Shown here: piece after piece, positions 4,530-60,488 of the stretch
Layout of the letters: every line of letters starts with the position of its first letter
Numbering within the stretch: the first letter of the stretch is position 1
Program-made: the position numbers and the translations under genes
Source: Cyanidioschyzon merolae
Taxonomy: Eukaryota
Assembly (NCBI GenBank): GCA_000091205.1
Contig: AP006501.2
Length of the DNA stretch: 64,000 nt
Strand: one strand, 5' to 3'
The notes under the pieces: generated by a model
Told to the model about the DNA's origin: nothing
Database searches by the model: none
What the model saw: only the letters and a program-made list of their open reading frames with translations

Positions 4530-5417
4530 CTCCACGGTAAATGAGAGATCTCAATGGCTGGTATACACACTGGACAACGAGAACGGTCACCGTTCGGGTC
4601 GGGTCCGACCCTATACCGAAGTCCTGTCGCACGATACGCTGGACAGGTGCACTGCTGATGCGGACGAAGGCACCCCAGTCGAGTGCTGCACGTCGCGACG
4701 GTATGGCAAGCATCACCAACTTGCCGTCCAGTGGGTGCTCGGATTTCCGCTAAGCGAATCATTTAGATTTGTCGAGCGGCTGCGTCGCAGCCAGCGAAGG
4801 CAGGTCGAGTAGCAAGCGAATATATCGCGTGGCTCGCTACCCGGATGCCCGGACCCCAGTGCAGGTATCCTGTACGAGCGCGATCTGCTGTCGCAGACGC
4901 TCGCTACGCATGGGCGTTAGGTTCAGGCAGAAAAGCGACAGGCCAGTTCTCGATACAGCGACACGGCACAAGCAACGGAACGGAACACAAGCGTACTTAC
5001 CGAATGACGAGGCCCGAAGCCATGAGTCGCCGCTCTTGGTTCGGAGCACGCACGCACGCACACCATCACCCGCAGCAGTCTGACAACGATGCGTACGGCG
5101 TTGCAGTGTCCTAGTCGGGGCTCAAGGACACCCGCGGATGACCACTGGGAAGTGCAGGCGTCGTTTACGCGGAGCTGCTCGCGGACTGGCGAGCGGTTTG
5201 CCGGGCTCGTCGCGACACTGCGCGTGCCAACATGGACTGGGCGCCCGTCCGACTTGCGCTGAGCCTCGAGCCTGGTACAGCGCCGATGCGAACACGTGGA
5301 ACACAGAGGCCCACTCCTCTGGCAATGCTCGTCAATAGCATCCGCATGTAGACGGGTCAGCTTTGATGACGTTTTCTGAAGGCTGCCTTCCACAGAAACA
5401 CTGCCCGCTTCGATGTA

Positions 5418-5603
5418 CTACCCTGAACCAGATCGCAGTTTCCCGTGCCAGTATCGAATGCAAGCACTGTACCAGACAGTGCACCGACTGCAATTGACTC
5501 CAGACTATCCTGAACCAGATCGCCGTTTCCCGTGCCAGTATCGGAGGCAATCACTGTACCAGAAAGTGCACCGACTGCAATTGGATGTGTCTGGGTGCCG
5601 AGC
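5418..5603. repeat. Tandem duplication, 2 x ~93 bp, about 88% identical
   Basis: Unit 'cctgaaccagatcgc(a/c)gtttcccgtgccagtatcg(a/g)a(t/g)gcaa(g/t)cactgtaccaga(c/a)agtgcaccgactgcaattg' occurs twice back-to-back. It lies intergenic, ~850 bp upstream of the ArsS-like gene. Confidence 0.8.
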
Positions 5604-22053: not shown

Positions 22054-25000
22054 GTCCGTTGGCCGCACGACAATCAACGACGGGATGTACGATCAGTGGC
22101 TAAAGTTCGCCAAACTGCAGCCAAACTGCCCGTTCAGAGTTTCCACCAACGCGAGGCGCTCCCGTCGCACGTACCGGCCTTGTGCAGTCCAGTGGATGTG
22201 CCAAGGCAATCAACTCCCCGAAGCTTGACAGGTCGACACTCGAACAAGACCCGCCCCAGAGAAGCATAAACCGACACGTGGACAAACCTTCGCGCTCACT
22301 AGCCTCCTCAAACCAGCCTCAAACACTTGAGCCTCACAAGAAAGGCTCCCGCGTTTACGACTTTAAGCCTCAGCAGCGAGAGAGGCACCGTGGCGTGTCA
22401 AAAGCGTCTTGTGTAGCGTTTTGTTCGAACACGCACGCACGCAGCCGAAGATCGAGCACGCACACATCTGAACCGCGATGCGTGCGGACGTAACGTGACG
22501 CATGCTTGCGTGACGACACGAAAAGCGACGCGCCGGCCGCCGCGCCTGTTGCGCGCTTGGCGCGCTCAAGAGCGCTGTCCCAATCTAGGACATAGAGGAC
22601 GCCTTTCCAGGCGGCTTCTCTGCGCCATTCAGTTGGCGGCTGCGCGGTTGCGGGTGATGTTTTTCGCGATTCCATTGGCCAGGGATCTCTGATTCCGCGC
22701 TTCGCATCAGCGCGCAGTGAAACAGGTATCGTACCATGGCCTGCTTCTAAGTTGCACGATCCGTACTTTTTTTGTCGGAGATCGTGGTTGTTGTCCGCGT
22801 TCTGTCGTACGCTGCGTGCATGCCGTGAGCGTTCGCAGTGAGCCCTATTGTGCCGCCACGGTCGCAGCACGGAGACAAAGCGGCTTTGCTACAGTCCTGA
22901 GGGCCTCGGCTCGAGGCGTGCTGCCTGCGCGAATGCTCCAAAAACGGGTGTCAGGCGCGTCAGGTATCGGGGGCGTCTCGAACAACTGCGGCTGTGCGAA
23001 GCAAGTTTCCCTTTGGACACCTTTTCATATTAATGCGAAGAAAACTCTGGGCGCTGCCCTCGTTCAGTGTGGCTTTGGCAGTAAAGTATCTTGCGTTCAT
23101 GGTTCTTTCACGCTAATTATTACTTTGCTGTATATACCTGGATTCATTGAGGAAATAGTACTTTCTATTTAGCAGTTATTCTTTGACCTAGGCTATTTTT
23201 AGGGCTAAACAGCTGCAGCAGTCTCGTTTGCATCTATTGAATCGAAAGCTCCATGTCCGAAACTTCAAAAGCAGACTTGGTTGACGTTTCTGCAGCGTCG
23301 TACCTCTCCAGACGCGGCACAGATGAAACGTACAGTTCTGCAGTTGGCATTGTGGTTGCTGCGCGCTTGTGGAGCATGTTTCCGGGACAGGTGCGCATGG
23401 TTCTCATGCGTGACGTCCGATCGAAGGGAACGCGCTCGAAGGAGACGGAAGCGCGTTTGACGGAGGAATATGCGGATGTTGTTGCACCACGTTATGGGAC
23501 GGAAGAAAAGTTCATGGCAAACCTGTGGCTCTTGCGATGACCCGAACTAGGTGTAGAATGGTCTCGGTATGCTGGTCTGCAGTGGACAACCGGCGGGCTC
23601 GCTTCCTTACTAAATGTAGTATGGAATATATCCTGAGAGAAACGAGTAGGGTCCGATACCAGATCTGCTTAAAGTGTTATGGTGGTTACTTCTGCTGCGA
23701 AGCGCTCGCTGGCAAGTCGTTTTCAAGTATGCTGCAGAGCGCGAACTCTATTCTGGACTCGGTGCTGCTTCTGTGTGCTACAAAACGGATCTAGAAGCTC
23801 TCCGCATTCCACTGACTTCGACATGGCGTGCTGTACCCCAACTGCAACCAAGCGTTTGCGAAAGGTTTCGCGTGCTGCAGCATGGGAAACCCAAGTGAAC
23901 AAAGCTGAGTCGATCGCAGAATCCGTACATGATTTGGATCCATCGGCGATAATATCTCGCCACGTGAAATCAGAAGATACTTTATGGGAAGCGCTGTGAA
24001 GTCGAACGGCCAGTTCTAGCGTCCCGGAGCATGAAGAGACACACATACGGGATGAAAGCACCTTCCTTGCAGGTCGTAGACTGCCGCAAGTACATGGCAT
24101 CGGCGTAAGGTACGAATACCTCCCGTTTTTTATGATGCTGGATCCATACGTCAAAGCAGAATCCCCCGTACTGGGAACGGTGCCGATAACCAGGGCCGGG
24201 ACCCCCGCTCGCCTCAGCCGATCCACCGCACCACAGGGTCACCTCGTGTATACCCTCAGAGCCACACATTGGACCGATCTGGTGAGTTCATCCGCACCGG
24301 GCCTCCAGAGTACGCTCGCCAGGACACACGATACACCTTTGAAGTCGTTCACACAGGTGGACAGGACGGCTTCGCGCTGCCTTTGCTGAAATTCGTCCAA
24401 GGGCATATCGCCTGACCCTCTCCAGGCACCCAAATCGCGTTGGAGCACGTATTGCAACTCGCTTAATCTCGCAGAATCTCACCGAGCGCATCCCGCGAAA
24501 AACACACTTTGCATCTTCAGATCAGCGCTACCTAGCAGAGCTGAGGTTCATTCTAGCACATTCTAGAATGTCATTTGGCGAGAGGACGCTTTGTCGGAGC
24601 TCTTGTAGAAAGCGCCCCGAATTCAGAATGCTCAACTTTGCAGCGCAAACACTCGGGAGAGCGCCGAGCCCGTCGCTTGTCCGTGCAGATACAGGTCTCG
24701 GTGTTCATGCTCGCAGCGGCTCCTGCAGCTTGACTTTCCGCAAACTCGCACCGAACCAACGGTGTAAACTCGGTCTCGACAACGGATTCGGCCACTGTAC
24801 TTTTGTACGCGTTTTTCCTTGCATCCGAGTTCGAAATGGGTGTAACACTCAGCGGCACGGTCGGTGAACGGTACCTGCTGTTGGAAAAGCCAACGCACGC
24901 TGCATCTGGTTTCGAATATGCTCGACTGCACCACTCTCGCCGCAGTCTGAATTCATAAACAGCTACGCTACACGATTGAATCTGAACGGAAGCCCGACCG

Positions 25001-29289: not shown

Positions 29290-30300
29290 TTCGCTGACGA
29301 CAGCGAACGCCTTTCTAAAGTCGAAAGCAGTCGTCAGCGATACAGTGGTGGCGGCGAACGCCCGCCCTAGACAAGACGTCGCCCACTGATGTGCAGAGGC
29401 CTCCCAGTCTTTCTCGACCGGCCACCTACTACTGCTTCCAACTTTTTCTCATGTAATTCCACCATGAGAGGTTGTCCATGAAAATTCTCTCTCGTCATTT
29501 CTGGGGGTCTTTTCTCCATCACCGCACATTTCCTTATATTGATAGCAGCGTTAAAGTCTCGGTTCACGAATTCCATACGTTTCTTGCCATCTCTGGTTGT
29601 ACGTACTAATGCAAGTAGTCCTCGAACTTTCGCTCGCCTATCCATTTGCTGCTCCGTCAGCGCTCCGTATTTTTTACAATCCTCAGTACCCCGCTGGCAC
29701 TTTTCCACAGAGACCCTCTGAAGTGTACACCCCAGCTCATGGCGTATGTATGACGTTCGGAACTCATCTACAGGTATCGTAACGAAACATCGTTCGCACT
29801 CCCTGGACGCTCATTCCGAGTCGCTGTAAACCGGAAACGAAACTCTCCTCGACAAGCCATGAAAGTGGTGTTGTGGCTTTCCGCCAGACACGGTGGCTGT
29901 ATTTGCCGTGCCCGTGGCCCTGCAGGCGTGTTTCGGGGTGCGCTGACTGCACAAAAGCGGCGAGTTCGCGCTGCTGCCCTAGTATCTGGATGCTGGCGAC
30001 TCCCCGGCACAGATACCTTACGATGTGCGGACGGAGCATGCTGCTTCAGCACCGTAAGAACGACGCGCTCTCATGCGCGTTCCCTTGTGATCCAAGATAT
30101 GATCCACAGAGTGATAGTGGCGGCTAGCACGGAGCGTCTTCCGCATCGACTGCCGATCTGGGAACTGCGGCCCAGGGTTCGGAGTTTCACGTCACGAATG
30201 GTCCATACGCTCACGAGCGGTACTCGAAGCGGGCGCGCTGGACATTACACACTGCTTTGCTGCACGAGAACAGTGCTATGCTCGGGGCCGGCTAGAGTAC
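29290..30300 (-). mobile_element. Decayed TnpB/Fanzor-like element, copy B, inverted relative to copy A. Includes the conserved flank after the stop codon
   Basis: ORF 29367..29708(-) reads '...KKRMEFVNRDFNAAINIRKCAVMEKRPPE...GRRLV*', ~75% identical to copy A. Upstream frames 29764..30039 and 29768..30052 align to copy A (nt core 'gtttcgttacgatacctgta(t/g)(g/a)tgagttccgaacgtc' ~90% identical). An in-frame TAG and a 1-nt deletion disrupt the frame. Confidence 0.5.
29367..30052 (-). pseudogene. TnpB/Fanzor-like nuclease pseudogene (frameshifted, with an internal stop)
   Basis: Same motif set as copy A (YTSQ-like block, Zn-ribbon Cys pairs, NRDFNAAINI) split across two frames. Confidence 0.5.
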
Positions 30301-36414: not shown

Positions 36415-38102
36415 GGGCGAGCGCAGGTCACCACAACCGTAACTGCAGACGACAGCGCCTCAACCTTTGCCTCAACTCGGCAGACCGGACGTCGGATCCC
36501 TGTCGTTCTGCTGTGCACGGGCGATACGCTGCAACGGACTTGCGGATGCGCTGACGGACGAATCGGACACCCAGATCAGGTCGATACAGCGTCATTCTGT
36601 GTCACATTGTGTCACTATATATCAGTGCGTAAGGCTACATGGCGCGATGTTTCTATGTAGTTCGCTTGATCATGTTATGTACTAATAAATACCATTTTGT
36701 TCCTGGTGGGATGCGCGGCTGGCGCTCTGTTCACTGCGCGCCACGTCTTCACGAAGCAGATACTACGCATGCCGTCTTCGACTAGACAGTACTGGATACT
36801 GTGAAAGCGTACGGATCCGATTTATTTTGTTTGACAAAACGCTGCCGTATATAATGGATCCCAGATAGCGGGATCGATATTGGTAATCGAGAAAGCGTTC
36901 ATCATGATGCACTCTACTTCCAAGTTACATTTCCAATGCTTCCTTCCAGGTACACGAGTCGTTTTGTACGTTCTGTCGTGCACCTAACCTGCCTTACTGC
37001 GTTCGCAATAGCTGCTAGACCGCTGGTGCGGATGCAGCACGGAGACGGAACGGCTATGCCATAGCAATGAGGGTGTCGGCTCGAAGCCTGGTTCACCTGA
37101 TACGGGGTTGGGGTTCATGATCATTCTGGGAGCTTGGAAACTGTGCGGACAGACCTAATGCCCGCATCAGCGCGAAGCGATATACCATCAGGCCACTGCA
37201 GTCGGGGCGACAACCGGATGCATTCTTCCCGCTCCTAATCCCAGAATAATCTGCGTCTCAAACGAGTTGTCCATGGATGGTCACAGCACCCGTCATAGGG
37301 TGGAGCGTACAGCACGAGCCGCACAGACCCGTCCAGCTCACGCGACCTTCCGCGTAGAAGGTGGGCTTTGGGAAACACGGAACAGTGTTCCCACTCCCAA
37401 CGCTCACCGTAGACGAGGAACGATGTTGCTATTTCGTTGCTACCCAGTGATTAGTTTCTGTTCTTTCGACACAGTTACAGCTAGTAAGTCGTTCGTTTCT
37501 GTAGTTTTATGCGCTCGCCCATAGAAAAGAGCAACCGCACTGATCCGATGCTTGGGGTAGCCACGTGCCTGCTGCATGGGTCAACCTTTTCCGTGCAGCG
37601 GATCCATACCGGGCATACAAAAGTCCTGGCGTGACTGAATCGAGACCAAGTCTCGTTTTTTTACATACTGGTATGGAAGATATTGTTGGCTGCGTTCGGA
37701 TGTGTCAATGCTGCGAGTAACTGGGCTAGGAACTCGCCATCAGCTGATCATCCCATAGATCCCAAACTGAAATCCATTGGTATGCGGCGAATCTGCCTGC
37801 ATGACCGGTGACGGAGAACGTAGTCGCCGACCTCGATGCCCGCCAAGACGCTCACGCTGGAACGAGCGTGGTATCCTCTAAAGCTGGCGGCAAGCGGTTC
37901 TTTCGGGCAAGCCCCGCCACAAGTTGCGATCAGCCTCAGCGCAGTGCCTGTATCCAGTCGTGAGAGTCGGTTCCGAAGTACCACTCGCTCGCAGTAACCC
38001 GAAACTGAGTGCACCTTCACCAGAACAGGAAACTTGTAAAAGTTGCTGAGTTTCGAACAGCGAGCAACGTGAAACGCAGCGCAGCCGAATAGGTGCATGT
38101 GC

Positions 38103-45767: not shown

Positions 45768-46604
45768 ACGATCTTCGACGTGCTCTGTGAACGATGATTC
45801 GCTTCAGGCGACGTTGCGTTCGATGCGGGCTACTCAGACGCATAGACCACCAAGGGAGCTACGAGCTTGCATTGAGGAGCGTCATCCAGGAAAACGTCTT
45901 CCGATCACGCGAGCAGGTAGTCTTCGGGAACAGGTCGCTTGTGCAGTTGTCACGCTCGAACAAATCACCACTTTCTGGTCACTCTGAGCCGTTGATGGAA
46001 TCTGCAATCAAAGCATAGGACGAGCTGGTAGAAAATGAAAGGAAAACAGCGCGAAGAGCGCCTGGGTATACCTCTATCGGACGGTTTTGTGTTCTCTACC
46101 AAACGACATACGTTGTTGTTGACGAAACCGAGTTTCCGCGTTCGCACCGCGCTCGCCGTTTGCTAGACTCATTTCCGTGTTAAATAGGGCAGAGCCAATG
46201 ATGCGGGCGTACACTCGAAAGTTTGCGTCTCATGTGACTTTCATCAATACCAGCCTTTGCGGGCTATTTCTCCTACTGCGTCCTTTTCCTCTTTCTCATC
46301 ACTGTCATGAAGGATGCCGGTCTACACGGTTTCCCTACCTCCATTGCTAGCTTTCGAGGGATGCTGATGTCAGCGCTGCAATTCTGATTTCACCGCATCC
46401 GCCAAGTGTCGATCCATGTCATGCACAGACCATCGTTGTGAACTACGCGTTGATTTCCATTTTCTTCTTCTTGGTAAACTACCTCGCTGCGTCCTTCTCG
46501 CCTGGGTCACTTGACTGTGGTCAGGTATTCTTATGTACGTCCGTCCTGGAGCGGACACCCTCTGGGGTACGCGAAAGCCGTTCTGTCTCCGTGTCGCATC
46601 CGCA

Positions 46605-46730
46605 CCGGCGCTAGAGGCGCTATCGCAGACGACCGGGGCAGGTACTCGGCGCGCGATAGAACGTATGAAACAACCAGCATATCCGAGAAGAGGTATGGGA
46701 CATGGAACTCGGAAGTATGGTGCATCATGA
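46605..46730 (+). other. Conserved non-coding element, copy 1 (~115 nt), ~430 bp upstream of the RPL12 gene
   Basis: About 80% identical to 55228-55340 in the same orientation. Shared core: 'gatagRacgtatgaaacRaccagMatatccgagaRgaRKtatggg'. The element spans ORF-track entries 46533..46730 and 55146..55340, which share a 'RMK.P.YPR' translation; their encoded proteins are judged spurious. Confidence 0.6.
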
Positions 46731-47156
46731 TGGGCACTTTCCAGAATGCCAACATCCATTGCGCAATCAGGCAACGCGAGTCTGTGTCAACGTTTCGTCT
46801 GATGCAACGAAAAACCATCGTTTGGATTGCGCTGCAGGCGTCACGACACGAGCTGTGACACATGATGCCGCCATCGCCGCTGCCGCCTAGCGCAGCACGC
46901 GCATGGCGCAGAAATGACCCGAAAATATACAAATCTCCCTGAGCCTCCGGCGTGCACCGCGCACTGCACTGCAAGCGAGCGCTCTCTACGCTGTCTTCCG
47001 TATGGACAACTGTTGCGATCCATAGAACAACGCGCGTTGAGCCGCTGTTCTTAGAGAAACGGACCCGGGCGTGTGAATCTTGTTTCTTTTATAGCCCTAA
47101 ACACCGGGTTTTCTTGGTTGCTATAGAGAAGCCGTCAGACAAGACCAGCACACAAA

Positions 47157-54397: not shown

Positions 54398-55213
54398 TCA
54401 AGGCAAAGCAAGCATGTTCCGGTGTTCATAGTAGGCATAGAGTCGCTCAACGAGGGGGTCGAGGCTGAGCTTCACGCGGCGCATATACTCGTCTTTGCGG
54501 GACGCTTCCACTCCAATGGATGTAAGAAACTGTTCGATGGGAGGCAGGAAGAAAACCGCTGCACGAACCGCCGCAATAACGACGCTCCCGTGGTGTTCAC
54601 GCAGCGCCTCCTGGTACGCGGTCCAGACGCACTCGCGTGTCGCCGCGCGTTTCGAGTAGGACGCTGCCGGGCAGCGCGCGAGCTCCCGCATGAGTACCTG
54701 AATGAACTTGAGGCACCACATCATTCGCAGAATATTACGGGCTGCACCTTGCTTACCACTGCCGGTTTCCAGACACCCTTCTCGGGTTTCTCGCTCGATA
54801 ACCTTACGAATAGTGGCGTAATTCTCTGGGTCGCTCCGGTATATGCGGTACAGCGTGTCACGCTTTTCAACAACATCCTGGTGCGCGAAAGAGAATGCAG
54901 CACCGAGGTGCTGAAACATGCCCGCAACTGCGGACAAAGCCGCAATAAAGTCCAGCAGGTACGGCAGCGGCCAAGGCTCTTGCGCAGGCGGCTCGTCGTA
55001 GCGGATTCGCTCAAACGCTTCGAGAAACTTTTCGAATGAGAACGGCGTACCAGCGTCAGTGGTAATTCGATCAAGTTCGTTTCCTTTCGCTGACAACTCG
55101 CGAACGTGCATCCAAGATTCACTCTGTTCATCCCGTTGAGTCATAGTGTCGACCTGTCGGGAACGAGTGACCAAACGAGATGCGCCGTACCGCAGGTGTT
55201 CGGCGAGCCGCAT
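54398..55213 (-). CDS. Glycolipid transfer protein (GLTP/ACD11 superfamily)
   Basis: 'FSFEKFLEAFERI' and 'GSGKQGAARNILRMMWCLKFIQVLMREL' parallel GLTP 'FLEAVSHL' and 'KVGATLALMWLKRGLRFIQVFL'. An alternative in-frame ATG lies at 55144. Confidence 0.75.
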   Translation of the reverse strand: MRLAEHLRYGASRLVTRSRQVDTMTQRDEQSESWMHVRELSAKGNELDRITTDAGTPFSFEKFLEAFERIRYDEPPAQEPWPLPYLLDFIAALSAVAGMFQHLGAAFSFAHQDVVEKRDTLYRIYRSDPENYATIRKVIERETREGCLETGSGKQGAARNILRMMWCLKFIQVLMRELARCPAASYSKRAATRECVWTAYQEALREHHGSVVIAAVRAAVFFLPPIEQFLTSIGVEASRKDEYMRRVKLSLDPLVERLYAYYEHRNMLALP

Positions 55214-55227
55214 CCGTCTTCCTCAAC

Positions 55228-55340
55228 CGGCGCTATCGACGCTATTGCGGCCGCTTTCGGCAGGCACTAGCACCACGATAGGACGTATGAAACGACCAGA
55301 ATATCCGAGAGGAATTATGGGTAATGCAACTTGGAGGTAG
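55228..55340 (+). other. Conserved non-coding element, copy 2 (~115 nt), immediately upstream of and divergent from the GLTP gene
   Basis: Aligns end-to-end with 46605-46730 (see copy 1). It is followed by an unusual A-rich tract at 55368-55450. Confidence 0.6.
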
Positions 55341-57206
55341 GGGGTTGATGGATACCTCACCGCGCACTGAAAAAAACACACAAAAAAGTAAGAAAAGAAA
55401 AATGCACCAAATCGGAGAACGTTGGCCCAAGTAAAAGTTTTGACAATGAAAAAAATCCGTCTGCCTCACTGGACGTCGTCGAGCGATGGAGAGCGCGGGT
55501 GTACAGCGACAGACGCAAGCACTGGCTCTTCCATTCGATTGCGAATGTCTGGATGGCGATACGGTCCGTGAGGAAACAGGTACCCGAGACAAAGTCCATA
55601 CTGGAGGAAAAGTTCCGCAATTTCGACTCAACTACGCTCCCTTCGCACCCACACGTGACCTATTGACCACCGGAGGCGATCGCTACGATGACTGCAATCC
55701 GGGTCCTTGGCCGTTTTCCATGCAAGCTGAGGAGCGCGGAGCCGCTGGGAGCGTGCTCCCCTGTGAGCGAGGTATCATGCTGCAGTCGACTTTGGTATCG
55801 TGGATGGCTACGACGAGATGCGGATTCGTGTTTCGGAAGACATCGATGATCGGACGCGAGCGGTTCCGTGAGCTGCCGCCTCTGACAGCCTGTGGTCGAC
55901 TTGTCACTGCGCGACGTCGCGATGCGCTCGATGTGCACCCAGCGGCGCGAGTCGCTGCGTCCACGCGGTGCCTTGGCGGGGAACCATCGAACACGTGAAG
56001 CGGGCGTGATTGGAACATGCTCCGCATTCGCACAAGAGCGTCACGGAGGCTTGGACGTATGCACGGGATACGGATATCGGTTGCTTTATGAACCGTACGC
56101 GGGAGGCGTCACGAGTCGCGTTGATTACGGTGACGTGCCGATGCCAGCGGGAGAACGTCGAACACGTCACTCTGGACACTCGATCGAGATTCCCTGAACC
56201 TCGTATGAAACCGTTGGCTCTGACAACTGCCATCGGCATGTCGAGGCTATGTGTTTCTGAAAACCCAAGTCCGGAACAACATCCGAATACGTGAACCGTA
56301 CGATCATCAGTATAGTGTTTGAGTCTGAACGCACACAAGTGTGGATCCTCTGCGTACCGACTCGTGTTCATAGACGCACAGACAATCCGCTGAATTCATG
56401 GGTGTTGCTCCGTAACCAAAGGCCGCAATCTCTGCGTTTGGTATCTACCTGCCAGGAAGACTCTTTTACTCTTTAGATGCTTCTTGTGATCGTGGATGCA
56501 TTTCGAATAGGTTCGGTGCCGCGCCACTGCCGCATCCCAAGGTCACCCGGCATCGTGGTGCTCTCAGCGCTTCAGTTCGAAGGTATCTCGGGTGCGCTGA
56601 GGCGCGTCCAATAACCACATGTCGACTGTGGACGCTGCATATCAGTTCAGCTCGTCTGTTGTGTGTTCCTGTCGCGAGAAAACCGAACGTTGACGCAGCG
56701 TTGTCGCTTGCTCACCATTCACGGAAGCACGCTGTGCAAAGTTTCCAGTCAGTCGGCCGGCTTCACGCACCAGACATAAACACGGGCGAACCGAGTTCGA
56801 GTTCCGCGACGACCGCAACACAGCACCTGTCGCTGCAGAGACACCAGGCGGACTGAGTCGTGACCCGCTCGCCCGCCGGAGGCACGCGTGCTGCTCTCGA
56901 GGCCGGTACAGCGTTGTTCGTTAACGCTCGGGTGCTCGTTGAGTGGGTTACGGGGATCGGGCACGAGAACAGAGCTTCCTCGTCTGCACAAGCTTTGAAG
57001 CTCGTAGCGTCAACAACCGTACAGCGGGCTTTGCAGCCCCGGGAGTTGTCTACAGTTGCGTCTGGATGACGTTCGCGTTAACCTGGCACCGGTTATCGTT
57101 CAGTGCACGAGCGAGGCAGGTTCTCGCCGAACGTCGCATAGCGAAGCGGTGGCACCTGCCTCGCGATATGCACCAACGCTGCCAGCTTCGTCAAGCACCG
57201 TAAACT

Positions 57207-59765
57207 TTATGCAAACTTGGGAAACGACTCGCGCAAAGTCACCGTTCTGTTGAAAACGAGGTGAGGTGGCGAGGCCTCAAGCTGGGAGTCCGGGTCCACG
57301 CAATAGAACCCGACTCTCTCGAACTGAAAAATAGCGCCTGGTTGCCAATCATCCGCGGATTCGCACCGAGCTTGTTGCAGAATGCGCTCGCTCTTGGGAT
57401 TGAAGAAGGTCAGCCACCCGTCGCGCTCTGATAGGTTCTGCTCGGCAGCGGCTTGAAGCGGATCTTCCACGCAGAACAGGGGCTCGTACAAGCGGCATTC
57501 ACAGGGCATGCTTTTCTCGGATACCCAGTGCAACACACCTTTTGGACGAGGTTGCGGTAATTGGGTGAGAATCTCGGCATGCAGCAACTGAACTTGGTCA
57601 TCACTTGTGGCGGGCGCATGCTGGGCAGTCAAGGCGGCAAGAACGCGAATCGCGAACCCAGTGTGACGCAGCAGGGCTGCTTTCCCTGGTGCAAGCCCGT
57701 AATAGTCCTTCGCATCTTGTAAACGAAAATCAGTTCGCTCCAAGTAGATCATCGGGGTAAATTCGAGCGTACGCGTGCCCAACTCGGGTCGTTTGGGATG
57801 GTTCGGCACCTGCACGGTAACTGCTTCCGCTGCCGACAGCGCCTGGGCAAAGTTCTTCAGCAGCACGGGCAACGGTTCGAGCACCACCATGCGACGCGGA
57901 GCATGCTGATCCATATACTGACGCACACAAGCCTCTAGCTTGCGCAGATGCACGTTGTTCTCCGCCCGTGAAAACCCTACACTAGCCACAAAGTGGTTAA
58001 TGGCGACTGGCGTGTAGCCCCGGCGCCTCATGCCAATCAGGGTCGGCATGCGTGGATCATCCCAACCGCGCACTAAGCCGCGCTCAATGATCTGGGTTAG
58101 TTTGCGCTTGCTCAAAACCGTGTGTGAAAGATTCAAACGACTGAATTCAAAAACGAACGGCCGATACATGTCGAGAGCCTCTAGCAACCAGTAGTACGAG
58201 TCCCGTCGTATCTCGAATTCCAGCGTGCACATCGAGTGCGTAATCCACTCCAGCGAGTCGACCAGGCAGTGCGTAAAGTCGTACGACGGATAGATGCACC
58301 ATCGATCTCCGACGTGCGGATGCGCTGCGTACTTGATGCGGTATGCGACGGGGTCTCTCATGACAGGATTCGGATGCTGCATGTCGATCTTCATACGAAG
58401 AACGGCGGCACCCTCATCGTATAGTCCAAGACGCATCCGCTCGAAGCAGTCAAGGTTCTCCTCGACGGAGCGATTTCGCCACGGAGACGGACGCTTCTCT
58501 TCGCGATCGCGCGCCATCTCCTCAGGCCGCTGATGGCACACATAAGCCTTGCCACGTCGAATGAGTTCCACAGCGAGTTCATGCAGACGGTCGAAGTAGT
58601 CGGAAGAGTACGTGATCTGGTAGGGTTGATAACCCATCCACTGCACTGTCTCGATGATTGAATCGATAAAGGCCTGCTCTTCTGTGTCGGGGTTGGTGTC
58701 GTCAAAGCGCAGGATGCACCGGCCTCCGTTTCGCATTGCGTAACCAAAGTCGAGCAACATCGCCTTGGTATGACCGCAATGAAGATGTGCGTTCGGCTCA
58801 GGCGGGAAGCGCGTGACAACAGAGCATCCATCCGTATTTGCACGTTGCAGAGCGAGCAGCTCCGGTGTATTCCGCATGGAGTCTAACGATCGTGCGTCGA
58901 AATAGGCTGGTAGCGCTGCAAATGGATTTTCAGCGAGCTGCGCGTCCGTTTCGTTATCGATAGCCGATCCCGAGCCGATACCAGCGTGCCCGTCTTTCGT
59001 CTTTGGTGCGGAACTCGCAGACGTCGCGGTGTTGAGCATGCGTCGGTTGGTTTTGCAGCGATCATCTGATGGACGATCTGCCGCCTCTTTGCTGGTGGTC
59101 GTTGAGGCGCGCGATCCCGCTCCGGCCTCTGACGAGCGTGGGCCCAGCAACGCAAAGAGTTTTGCATCGACCGCTTCCTTGATGCGGCGGCCTTCAACAA
59201 AACGAACACGCCGCTGAACACCAGCGATAATGGGACCAAGTGGATACTTGTAGCCCCGCACCAACAGGTCGTCCATGATTGTCCGAATTTCTTCGTCGAC
59301 TGCAGCCGACAGCGTACTGTCGTCAACAACAACGCCCGCACCCACTGCAGCATTGAAGTCGTCGCGGTCAACTTTGCCCTCGGCAGCTGTGCCCGGAGCC
59401 GACTCGAGCAGCGCCTCGAGGTAAGCGAACGCCGCTTCGAGCTTGGCCGTGTTGTCGATGCGCCCGTCGCCAATTGCTTCAAAGATGAGCTCGCGAAAGC
59501 AGCGCAGTTTTGTCGGGAGCTTGCTCACAGCCACATAAAGCAGCGAGGCTTTCTGCGGCGTGAGTGCCTGCTCCTCAGGCAATCGATCCGCAGTCGACTC
59601 CAGCGCTGAACGTTTGGCCACTTGCACGGCCTCAGTTAGTGCCGCCTGGACTTTAGCCGACCGTGCGACCGCTCGAAGGTTTCGATCCTCAAGACCTAGA
59701 GCTCGCAACTGATCTAAGAGACCATCGTCACCGGAGGCAGCTGCAGCGACGGCGTTCGTCTCCAT
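57207..59765 (-). CDS. Glutaminyl-tRNA synthetase (class I, GlnRS) with a eukaryotic N-terminal appended domain
   Basis: 'TRFPPEPNAHLHCGHTKA' is a HIGH-motif variant. Also present: 'RFDDTNPDTEEQAF', 'VLSKRKL' (KMSKS variant) and 'FERVGFYCVDPDS...LVFNRTVTLRE' (GlnRS anticodon-binding C-terminus). The ORF opens at ATG ~59954, but the conserved N-terminus begins at 'METNAVAAA' (~59765). Start +/- a few nt. Confidence 0.9.
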   Translation of the reverse strand: METNAVAAAASGDDGLLDQLRALGLEDRNLRAVARSAKVQAALTEAVQVAKRSALESTADRLPEEQALTPQKASLLYVAVSKLPTKLRCFRELIFEAIGDGRIDNTAKLEAAFAYLEALLESAPGTAAEGKVDRDDFNAAVGAGVVVDDSTLSAAVDEEIRTIMDDLLVRGYKYPLGPIIAGVQRRVRFVEGRRIKEAVDAKLFALLGPRSSEAGAGSRASTTTSKEAADRPSDDRCKTNRRMLNTATSASSAPKTKDGHAGIGSGSAIDNETDAQLAENPFAALPAYFDARSLDSMRNTPELLALQRANTDGCSVVTRFPPEPNAHLHCGHTKAMLLDFGYAMRNGGRCILRFDDTNPDTEEQAFIDSIIETVQWMGYQPYQITYSSDYFDRLHELAVELIRRGKAYVCHQRPEEMARDREEKRPSPWRNRSVEENLDCFERMRLGLYDEGAAVLRMKIDMQHPNPVMRDPVAYRIKYAAHPHVGDRWCIYPSYDFTHCLVDSLEWITHSMCTLEFEIRRDSYYWLLEALDMYRPFVFEFSRLNLSHTVLSKRKLTQIIERGLVRGWDDPRMPTLIGMRRRGYTPVAINHFVASVGFSRAENNVHLRKLEACVRQYMDQHAPRRMVVLEPLPVLLKNFAQALSAAEAVTVQVPNHPKRPELGTRTLEFTPMIYLERTDFRLQDAKDYYGLAPGKAALLRHTGFAIRVLAALTAQHAPATSDDQVQLLHAEILTQLPQPRPKGVLHWVSEKSMPCECRLYEPLFCVEDPLQAAAEQNLSERDGWLTFFNPKSERILQQARCESADDWQPGAIFQFERVGFYCVDPDSQLEASPPHLVFNRTVTLRESFPKFA

Positions 59766-60000
59766 AACTACCAACGCAGCCGCAACGCAGCCGCGACACA
59801 GCACGACGGGCGCTAACGGGAGAGCCGTGCGTAGACGCCTGCGAAACGCCAGGCGTGGGAAAATAGCCCCAGCAGGGCGCTGCTGTCCAGGCGCTTCGAT
59901 GTCCGGTTTACGGCTGCGTTGCGATCCTGGCGTATGCACTCGGGTGCAGTGCATCGATTCCGTCTAGGCATGCTCATTTTTCGATGTCCACGACAATTGG

Positions 60001-60488
60001 AGGCTTGTTTCGCATCTATACGAGCTGTGGTATCTGTATCCCGGATCTATATACAAAATAGAGGATTCGATGTGTAAGACGATTAGAGGCTTGTTTCGCA
60101 TCTATACGAGCTGTGGTATCTGTATCTCGGATCTATATACAAAATAGAGGATTCGATGTGTAAGACGATTAGAGGCTTGTTTCGCATCTATACGAGCTGT
60201 GGTATCTGTATCTCGGATCTATATACAAAATAGAGGATTCGATGTGTAAGACGATTGGAGGCTTGTTTCGCATCTATACGAGCTGTGGTATCTGTATCTC
60301 GGATGTATACCCAAAATAGAGGATTCGATGTGTAAGACGATTAGAGGCTTGTTTCGCATCTATACGAGCTGTGGTATCTGTATCTCGGATGTATACCCAA
60401 AATAGAGGATTCGATGTGTAAGACGATTAGAGGCTTGTTTTGCATTTGTACGTGCTGTGGTATCTCTACATCAGATACAGGTACAGTC
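60001..60488. repeat. Minisatellite, ~86-bp unit x ~5.5 copies (last copy degenerate)
   Basis: Unit 'gaggcttgtttcgcatctatacgagctgtggtatctgtatctcggatctatatacaaaatagaggattcgatgtgtaagacgatta' starts at 60001, 60086, 60172, 60258, 60345 and 60430. It lies in the divergent intergenic region between GlnRS (-) and DHHC (+). Confidence 0.9.

Follow-up and report, generated by a model that had tools for sequence, protein, structure and literature searches.

Intergenic repeats in Cyanidioschyzon merolae as probable 5'-truncated copies of the 3' UTR of a LINE-type retrotransposon

In stringent LINEs, which include R2 and the L2-clade elements UnaL2 and ZfL2, the reverse transcriptase (RT) recognises a stem-loop in the 3' untranslated region (UTR). 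Insertion of LINEs takes place by target-primed reverse transcription, which is the basis of the steps proposed below. In Cyanidioschyzon merolae, 26 RT-bearing class I elements have been counted, all of them closest to non-LTR retrotransposons (Nozaki et al. 2007, PMC1955436); this census considered RT-bearing elements only and put them at 0.7% of the genome, assuming 4 kb each. A paper on dispersed repeats (PMC11050394) is without a usable consensus. The class I elements of C. merolae 10D ('retroelement, alive', P0012 and P0016) belong to the same organism as the element described here, whose RT open reading frame (ORF) is 80-84% identical to them.

The element resembles the stringent LINEs in its conserved 3' UTR with a covarying hairpin, in a short fixed A-rich terminus in place of a long poly(A), and in the occurrence of short derivatives sharing its 3' end. 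Among solved structures, its RT is closer to R2 than to L1 (best PDB matches, R2 RT at 1e-12 and then L1 ORF2p at 1e-6). Recognition of the hairpin, a property of the stringent LINEs, is one that we infer for the RT of this family. Unlike the stringent LINEs, the family gave no Pfam match to an APE or restriction-like endonuclease domain in the ORFs up- and downstream of the RT, in copies that are degenerate or truncated by contig ends; its insertion was not rDNA-specific, and its target-site duplications (TSDs) were 8-22 nt long, varied in length between copies and often started with ATCG. Like SINEs and LINE-tail retroposons, the copies are short, non-autonomous, TSD-flanked and A-tailed, carry a LINE 3' end and have a preferred 5' end. 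Unlike SINEs, they have no Pol III-type head, and their whole sequence is collinear with the LINE 3' UTR.

The window analysed is a stretch of 64,000 nt with about 55% G+C; both of its strands carry long ORFs free of introns, and it gave no tRNA or Rfam hit. The RPL12 of the window is identical to BAM82875.1 of C. merolae 10D, and six hot-spring metagenome contigs carry the window region at 99.3-99.5% identity. Two tandem repeats were observed in the window: an 86-nt unit repeated 5.7 times at 96% identity (59980-60465), whose period is not divisible by three and which lies in intergenic DNA upstream of a glutaminyl-tRNA synthetase-like ORF (57207-59954, minus strand), and an 87-nt tandem duplication at 5417-5583 (1.9 copies, 92% identity).

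A preliminary description of the window had reported two same-orientation copies of a noncoding element of ~115 nt with a near-identical core. Both stretches were confirmed in position and orientation: a MAFFT alignment of 46555-46780 with 55178-55390 gave a mean column identity of 79%, and a repeat search of the window returned them as a direct repeat family (D2; 46604-46720 and 55226-55342, 117 nt, 75% ungapped identity). The near-identical core was also found, in that the 28-nt sequence ACGTATGAAACRACCAGMATATCCGAGA occurs exactly twice in the window, even when up to 3 mismatches are allowed, and had no match in any of 100 dinucleotide-preserving shuffles. The two stretches are intergenic as claimed, the first ending 427 nt upstream of the RPL12 ATG (47157) and the second adjoining the start of the longest GLTP ORF (55213, minus strand). 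The number of copies and their length had to be revised. An nhmmer profile built from the aligned copies detected four copies in the window, two per strand (E=3e-54 to 7e-66), and every copy is longer than ~115 nt (Table 1). The ~115-nt overlap arose because the second copy is 5'-truncated at 55226, equivalent to 46603 of the first, and because the subfamily tails diverge beyond ~46730 and 55340. The copies first described thus correspond to the middle part of the copy designated c1 and to the first half of c2.

Table 1. Coordinates of the element copies in the window and of their associated features
Feature	Position	Strand	Description
c1	46545-46814	+	Old 5'-truncated LINE 3' UTR copy (probable), subfamily-B tail (...CGCAATCA...GTCAACGTTTCGTCTGATGCAACGAAAAA)
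c1, hairpin position	46596-46632	+	4 of 13 pairs mismatched (letters from alignment A4)
c1, tentative upstream TSD	46429-46437	+	ACCATCGTT; partner 46814-46822, 9-nt exact match
c2	55226-55455	+	230-nt 5'-truncated LINE 3' UTR copy (probable), subfamily-A tail ending ...AAGTTTTGACAATGAAAAAAA
c2, upstream TSD	55212-55225	+	ATCCGTCTTCCTCA; matches 55455-55468 at 13 of 14 positions
c2, downstream TSD	55455-55468	+	ATCCGTCTGCCTCA; directly after the A-run, first A common to the A-tail
c3	36821-37392	-	~570 nt, 5'-truncated, subfamily-B tail (...GCGTTTTGTCAAACAAAATAAA)
c4	~22660-22934	-	Most diverged copy; tail ...CCAATGGAATCGCGAAAAA

Copy c2 is the most clearly bounded insertion. When it was aligned with the metagenome loci L047, L052 and L072, homology ran from ACCGGCGC to the A-run, with none outside, and by blastn it matched the 3' end of the RT-bearing locus L047 with 88.3% identity across 205 nt, reaching the common 3' terminus (nhmmer match 55155-55376, plus strand). 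Because homology starts and stops exactly between the two TSDs, c2 is read as a 230-nt insertion at 55226-55455, and its target site as a single copy would be ATCCGTCT(T/G)CCTCA. Copy c1 (nhmmer match 46532-46758, plus strand, E=7.5e-66) starts at a hot spot of 5' ends in the family, its CCTGGAGCGGAC corresponding to the consensus CCTCGAGCCGAC, and its 5' homology limit is family position 0. It was 71% identical over 257 nt to the subfamily-B copy L046 (46554-46807) and 70-76% identical to the RT-linked copies L047 and L109. The candidate TSD of c1 is weak (about p=0.06 by our estimate; none in a reversed-flank control); if real, it would move the start of c1 to 46438, and family homology is not detectable in 46438-46544.

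Copy c3 was matched by nhmmer at 37098-36874 (minus strand, E=2.1e-64), its extent being taken also from the repeat depth profile, and was 71% identical over 542 nt to L046 (37392-36856). A candidate TSD, ATCGGATCAGT (37549-37539) and ATCGGATCCGT (36821-36811), matches at 10 of 11 positions and would extend c3 to 37538. Copy c4 was matched at 22928-22701 (minus strand, E=3e-58), was also present in alignments A2 and A3, and was 69% identical to L046; a search for its TSD found none. The relationship between strands was also seen in the repeat search, in which the 5' side of the first copy had inverted relatives at 37000-37082 and 22859-22920. No RT-coding remnant was found in the window by tblastn, and the four RT-less fragments amount to ~1.3 kb in 64 kb.

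The upstream TSD of c2 contains the start ATG of the longest GLTP ORF (54398-55213, minus strand). One metagenome gene caller chose another in-frame Met (MTQRDEQ..., ~55144), giving a protein of 237 aa in place of 271 aa, and the true GLTP start may therefore be the downstream one.

The family was recovered by scanning a degenerate core pattern against JGI metagenomes, which represent near-identical hot-spring strains and not the reference genome. The pattern matched 102 stretches, all from hot-spring contigs, and nhmmer on the matched loci gave 159 hits that resolved into at least 58 distinct insertion sites; retrieval by pattern is biased (36 of the 58 sites match it), and the site count is not a reliable estimate of copies per genome. 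The full core of ~225 nt is carried by 48 of the 58 sites. The copies average 66% pairwise identity, and decay is distributed over their entire length. The flanks of many copies are themselves conserved. In a repeat depth profile, homology continued upstream for 300-800 nt or more in some of the copies; on the 3' side, ~75 nt beyond the core, depth dropped abruptly from 28 to 0.

In alignment A4, some copies (L080, L088 and L008) pair a core from one subfamily with a 3' tail from a different one, suggesting that LINE lineages have undergone recombination or template switching. The window also holds two partial copies (1-958 and 29306-29812; inverted repeat I1, 80-84% identity) of another dispersed repeat, which is ~2.6 kb long (reference L110:3430-6035) and carries ORFs of 219 aa and 254 aa on its minus strand. 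This repeat probably corresponds to the 'WSV486-like' interspersed repeat for which Nozaki 2007 gave 253 copies. At least 8 loci (L038, L106, L094, L064, L041, L056, L019 and L029) have the LINE A-tail directly next to it, always at the same end, suggesting an insertion preference or a composite unit.

The longest copies link the family to an RT. In L047, an ORF containing the motifs FIDFQKAFD, LRQGDPAS and FADD lies directly upstream of the element; this degenerate ORF matched Pfam RVT_1 (E=2.6e-23), as did that of a second copy, L109 (E=2.9e-22). The nearest named proteins were those annotated as 'retroelement, alive [Cyanidioschyzon merolae strain 10D]'. Since the ORF stops near q2480, the last ~400 nt of L047 constitute its 3' UTR, and the core first described lies wholly inside it. 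By blastn, the element was collinear over its whole length, from the first base, with the 3' UTR of the RT-encoding element. The RT ORF appears to begin only ~260 aa ahead of the RT. The homologues found for the N-terminal ORF share the same starting Met and are without a domain. No intact full-length element was present among the recovered copies.

All copies share a common 3' end, ...AAACGTTTTGTCAATGAAAAAAA, and most finish in the A-rich terminus ...TGAAAAAAA. When the 2.9-kb L047 was compared by blastn with all loci, every alignment ended at q~2880, and the start positions ranged between q104 and q2800, many lying within contigs. TSDs of 13-22 nt abutting the limits of homology were found in 11 of the 29 copies with a recognisable 3' terminus and in 0 of 29 in a reversed-flank control. 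Many TSDs begin with ATCG or ATCC (L054, L008, L041, L072, L092, L040, L077 and L101; in the window, 55212 and 36821), which may point to A|TCG as the site preferred for nicking by the putative endonuclease.

The preliminary description had proposed that all copies be folded together. One hairpin of 13 bp in the 3' UTR (helix 7; A4 columns 80-94 with 103-117) does covary across the family, with double-sided changes in 10 of the 13 pairs (for example, A-U 24 and G-C 15 at one pair, and U-A 16, U-G 12, A-U 8 and C-G 3 at another). Pairing was found in 82% of cells, compared with 33-37% when the partners were slid, and the G-U pairs lie on the sense strand. The hairpin is not maintained in the two copies first described, being mismatched in c1 (Table 1) and lacking its 5' arm in c2, which begins within it. 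RNAalifold with default settings returned no structure for the 48-copy alignment; a RIBOSUM run in Python gave a candidate fold, within which helix 7 was the only helix convincingly supported and the others were weakly supported. An APC-corrected covariation scan was unusable as evidence of structure because it was dominated by subfamily-diagnostic, non-pairing pairs of columns. The many short helices returned by a naive stack search were discarded as false.

Because the copies have a common 3' end, varied 5' ends, an RT ORF upstream and variable TSDs, the element is very probably the ~400-nt 3' UTR of a C. merolae non-LTR (LINE-type) retrotransposon, with the four window copies being dead, 5'-truncated insertions of it. 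The element is an ordinary repeat of an already known kind, namely truncated copies of an annotated retroelement family. Of the three explanations first offered, a repeat came closest, and a small RNA and a regulatory module were unsupported at these loci. Many decayed copies with TSDs, an outcome that the preliminary description had named (as hundreds of copies, an ordinary MITE) as one that would refute its reading, are what was found. In the proposed mechanism, which is modelled on LINEs in general, a protein encoded by the element would nick the target DNA, and the freed 3'-OH would serve as primer for reverse transcription of the element RNA, beginning at its 3' end. This synthesis would often stop early and so truncate the 5' end; such early stops would leave copies with the same 3' end, a variable 5' end and a short flanking target duplication. 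We infer that the hairpin and the core downstream of it may act as the 3'-UTR RNA signal of the element, recognised by its own RT; the signal would be conserved in active lineages and would decay in each inserted copy.

Several observations count against this explanation. No endonuclease domain and no intact full-length element were found among the recovered copies, and TSDs are clear for c2, tentative for c1 and c3, and were not found for c4. The 5' ends are uneven: 13-15 of ~48 copies (about 30%) start within +/-6 nt of family position 0 (CCTCGAGCCGAC), a pile-up that simple random truncation does not predict. A TSD directly abuts this start in L008, L072, L055 and L087, and the piled-up ends occur mainly in the subfamily whose hairpin is GCGACCGC...GCGGTCGC. 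The short form makes up 7 of 10 copies in core cluster 8, whereas it accounts for 1 of 11 in cluster 6, where most of the long, RT-linked copies fall. The pile-up could reflect a discrete short retroposon or a stop site of reverse transcription. Given the coincidence of ~30% of 5' ends and the enrichment in one subfamily, the short form may, as a tentative possibility, be a distinct retroposon that consists of the LINE 3' UTR only, has no Pol III head and has been self-amplified in C. merolae. The more specific proposal, a discrete non-autonomous retroposon of ~300 nt that is mobilised in trans by the LINE RT and of which c1-like copies would be full-length, is somewhat less likely still. It would refine the LINE 3' UTR explanation and does not contradict it. 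However, the short form is without a separate head or Pol III promoter, cluster 8 contains long copies too (L064 at -838 and L041 at -274), the start of c2 is not at the hot-spot position, and the same pile-up would be expected from an RNA-processing site or from a strong stop of reverse transcription.

A regulatory origin, in which the copies would form a shared cis-regulatory module or would be transposon fragments exapted as promoters or UTRs of RPL12, GLTP and a 170-aa ORF, draws on the gene neighbourhood. All four window copies are intergenic, each upstream of a same-strand ORF; c2 sits between the divergent GLTP ORF and the 170-aa ORF, abutting the start of the former and ending 31 nt before the ATG at 55486. 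However, the distances from the copies to the downstream ATG vary from ~31 to ~580 nt and thus do not suggest such a role. Two of the four copies lie in divergent intergenic regions, where either orientation would be "upstream" of something, and the neighbouring genes are functionally unrelated. In addition, tolerated insertions are bound to be intergenic in so compact a genome, and the family is found inserted into other repeats elsewhere. A regulatory origin is therefore very improbable.

If the element were a family of structured small noncoding RNA genes, either resembling snoRNAs or of a novel type, c1 and c2 would be expressed paralogues; this reading would account for the one hairpin with compensatory changes, and TGATGG...CTGA motifs were seen by eye near the 3' part. 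Stable noncoding RNAs have also been described recently in C. merolae (bioRxiv 10.1101/2025.12.01.691491), although these are intronic, and the sieRNAs of that study were set aside as irrelevant to the element for this reason. Rfam returned nothing at the gathering threshold and, at E<=1, only one chance lncRNA match (E=0.22). In the long copies the sequence adjoins an RT ORF without a break, TSDs and A-tails occur on copies, the covarying helix is disrupted in c1 while c2 lacks half of it, and the low identity among copies reflects decay along their whole length. Small RNA genes at these loci are thus scarcely credible. A C/D snoRNA, considered by eye on account of the TGATGG just after the first copy, was dropped because this stretch is part of the subfamily-B LINE tail common to many copies.

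Two further readings were rejected outright. A classical SINE requires a Pol III head, and no tRNA-like, 5S or 7SL head was found with ARAGORN (0 tRNA genes) or Rfam; the sequence follows the LINE 3' UTR collinearly from the first base onwards. Of the repeat label given in the preliminary description, the classical SINE fell away as a class, as did the MITE, and the designation as a repeat stood. A small protein was rejected because only 3 of 48 members keep an open plus-strand frame. Length differences within the family are not multiples of three (remainders 0, 1 and 2 in 19, 13 and 15 cases), and substitutions by codon position were 20.3, 20.9 and 16.9, the third position not being the most variable. 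The ORFs at 46533-46730 and 55146-55340 were spurious, as had been judged beforehand, with no frame conserved across the family.

Short, dispersed, intergenic sequences with two same-orientation copies 8.6 kb apart would also fit a MITE (a DNA transposon that is non-autonomous) or a segmental duplication of local origin, but this reading has a negligible likelihood given the absence of terminal inverted repeats at the element ends, the TSDs of 8-22 nt in place of a fixed length, the A-tails, the 5' truncation and the at least 58 unrelated sites; a duplication is excluded because the flanks share no similarity, which falls to zero outside the element.

For annotation, the intergenic similarities and the ORFs 46533-46730 and 55146-55340 are best masked as remnants of a retrotransposon; they should not be treated as RNA genes, small proteins or regulatory modules. 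The four copies in the window, like most of the 58 sites, are fragments of 3' UTR without an RT and would escape the count in PMC1955436. The retroposon load of C. merolae has probably been underestimated, since the census was RT-based, the window alone holds four RT-less fragments, and at least 58 sites occur in related strains. The hairpin that covaries in the 3' UTR and the bias of target sites towards ATCG may aid in characterising this LINE family. If the short form is indeed a retroposon in its own right, RT-less fragments would far outnumber the census of 26, and the picture of an almost transposon-free genome would need to be revised.
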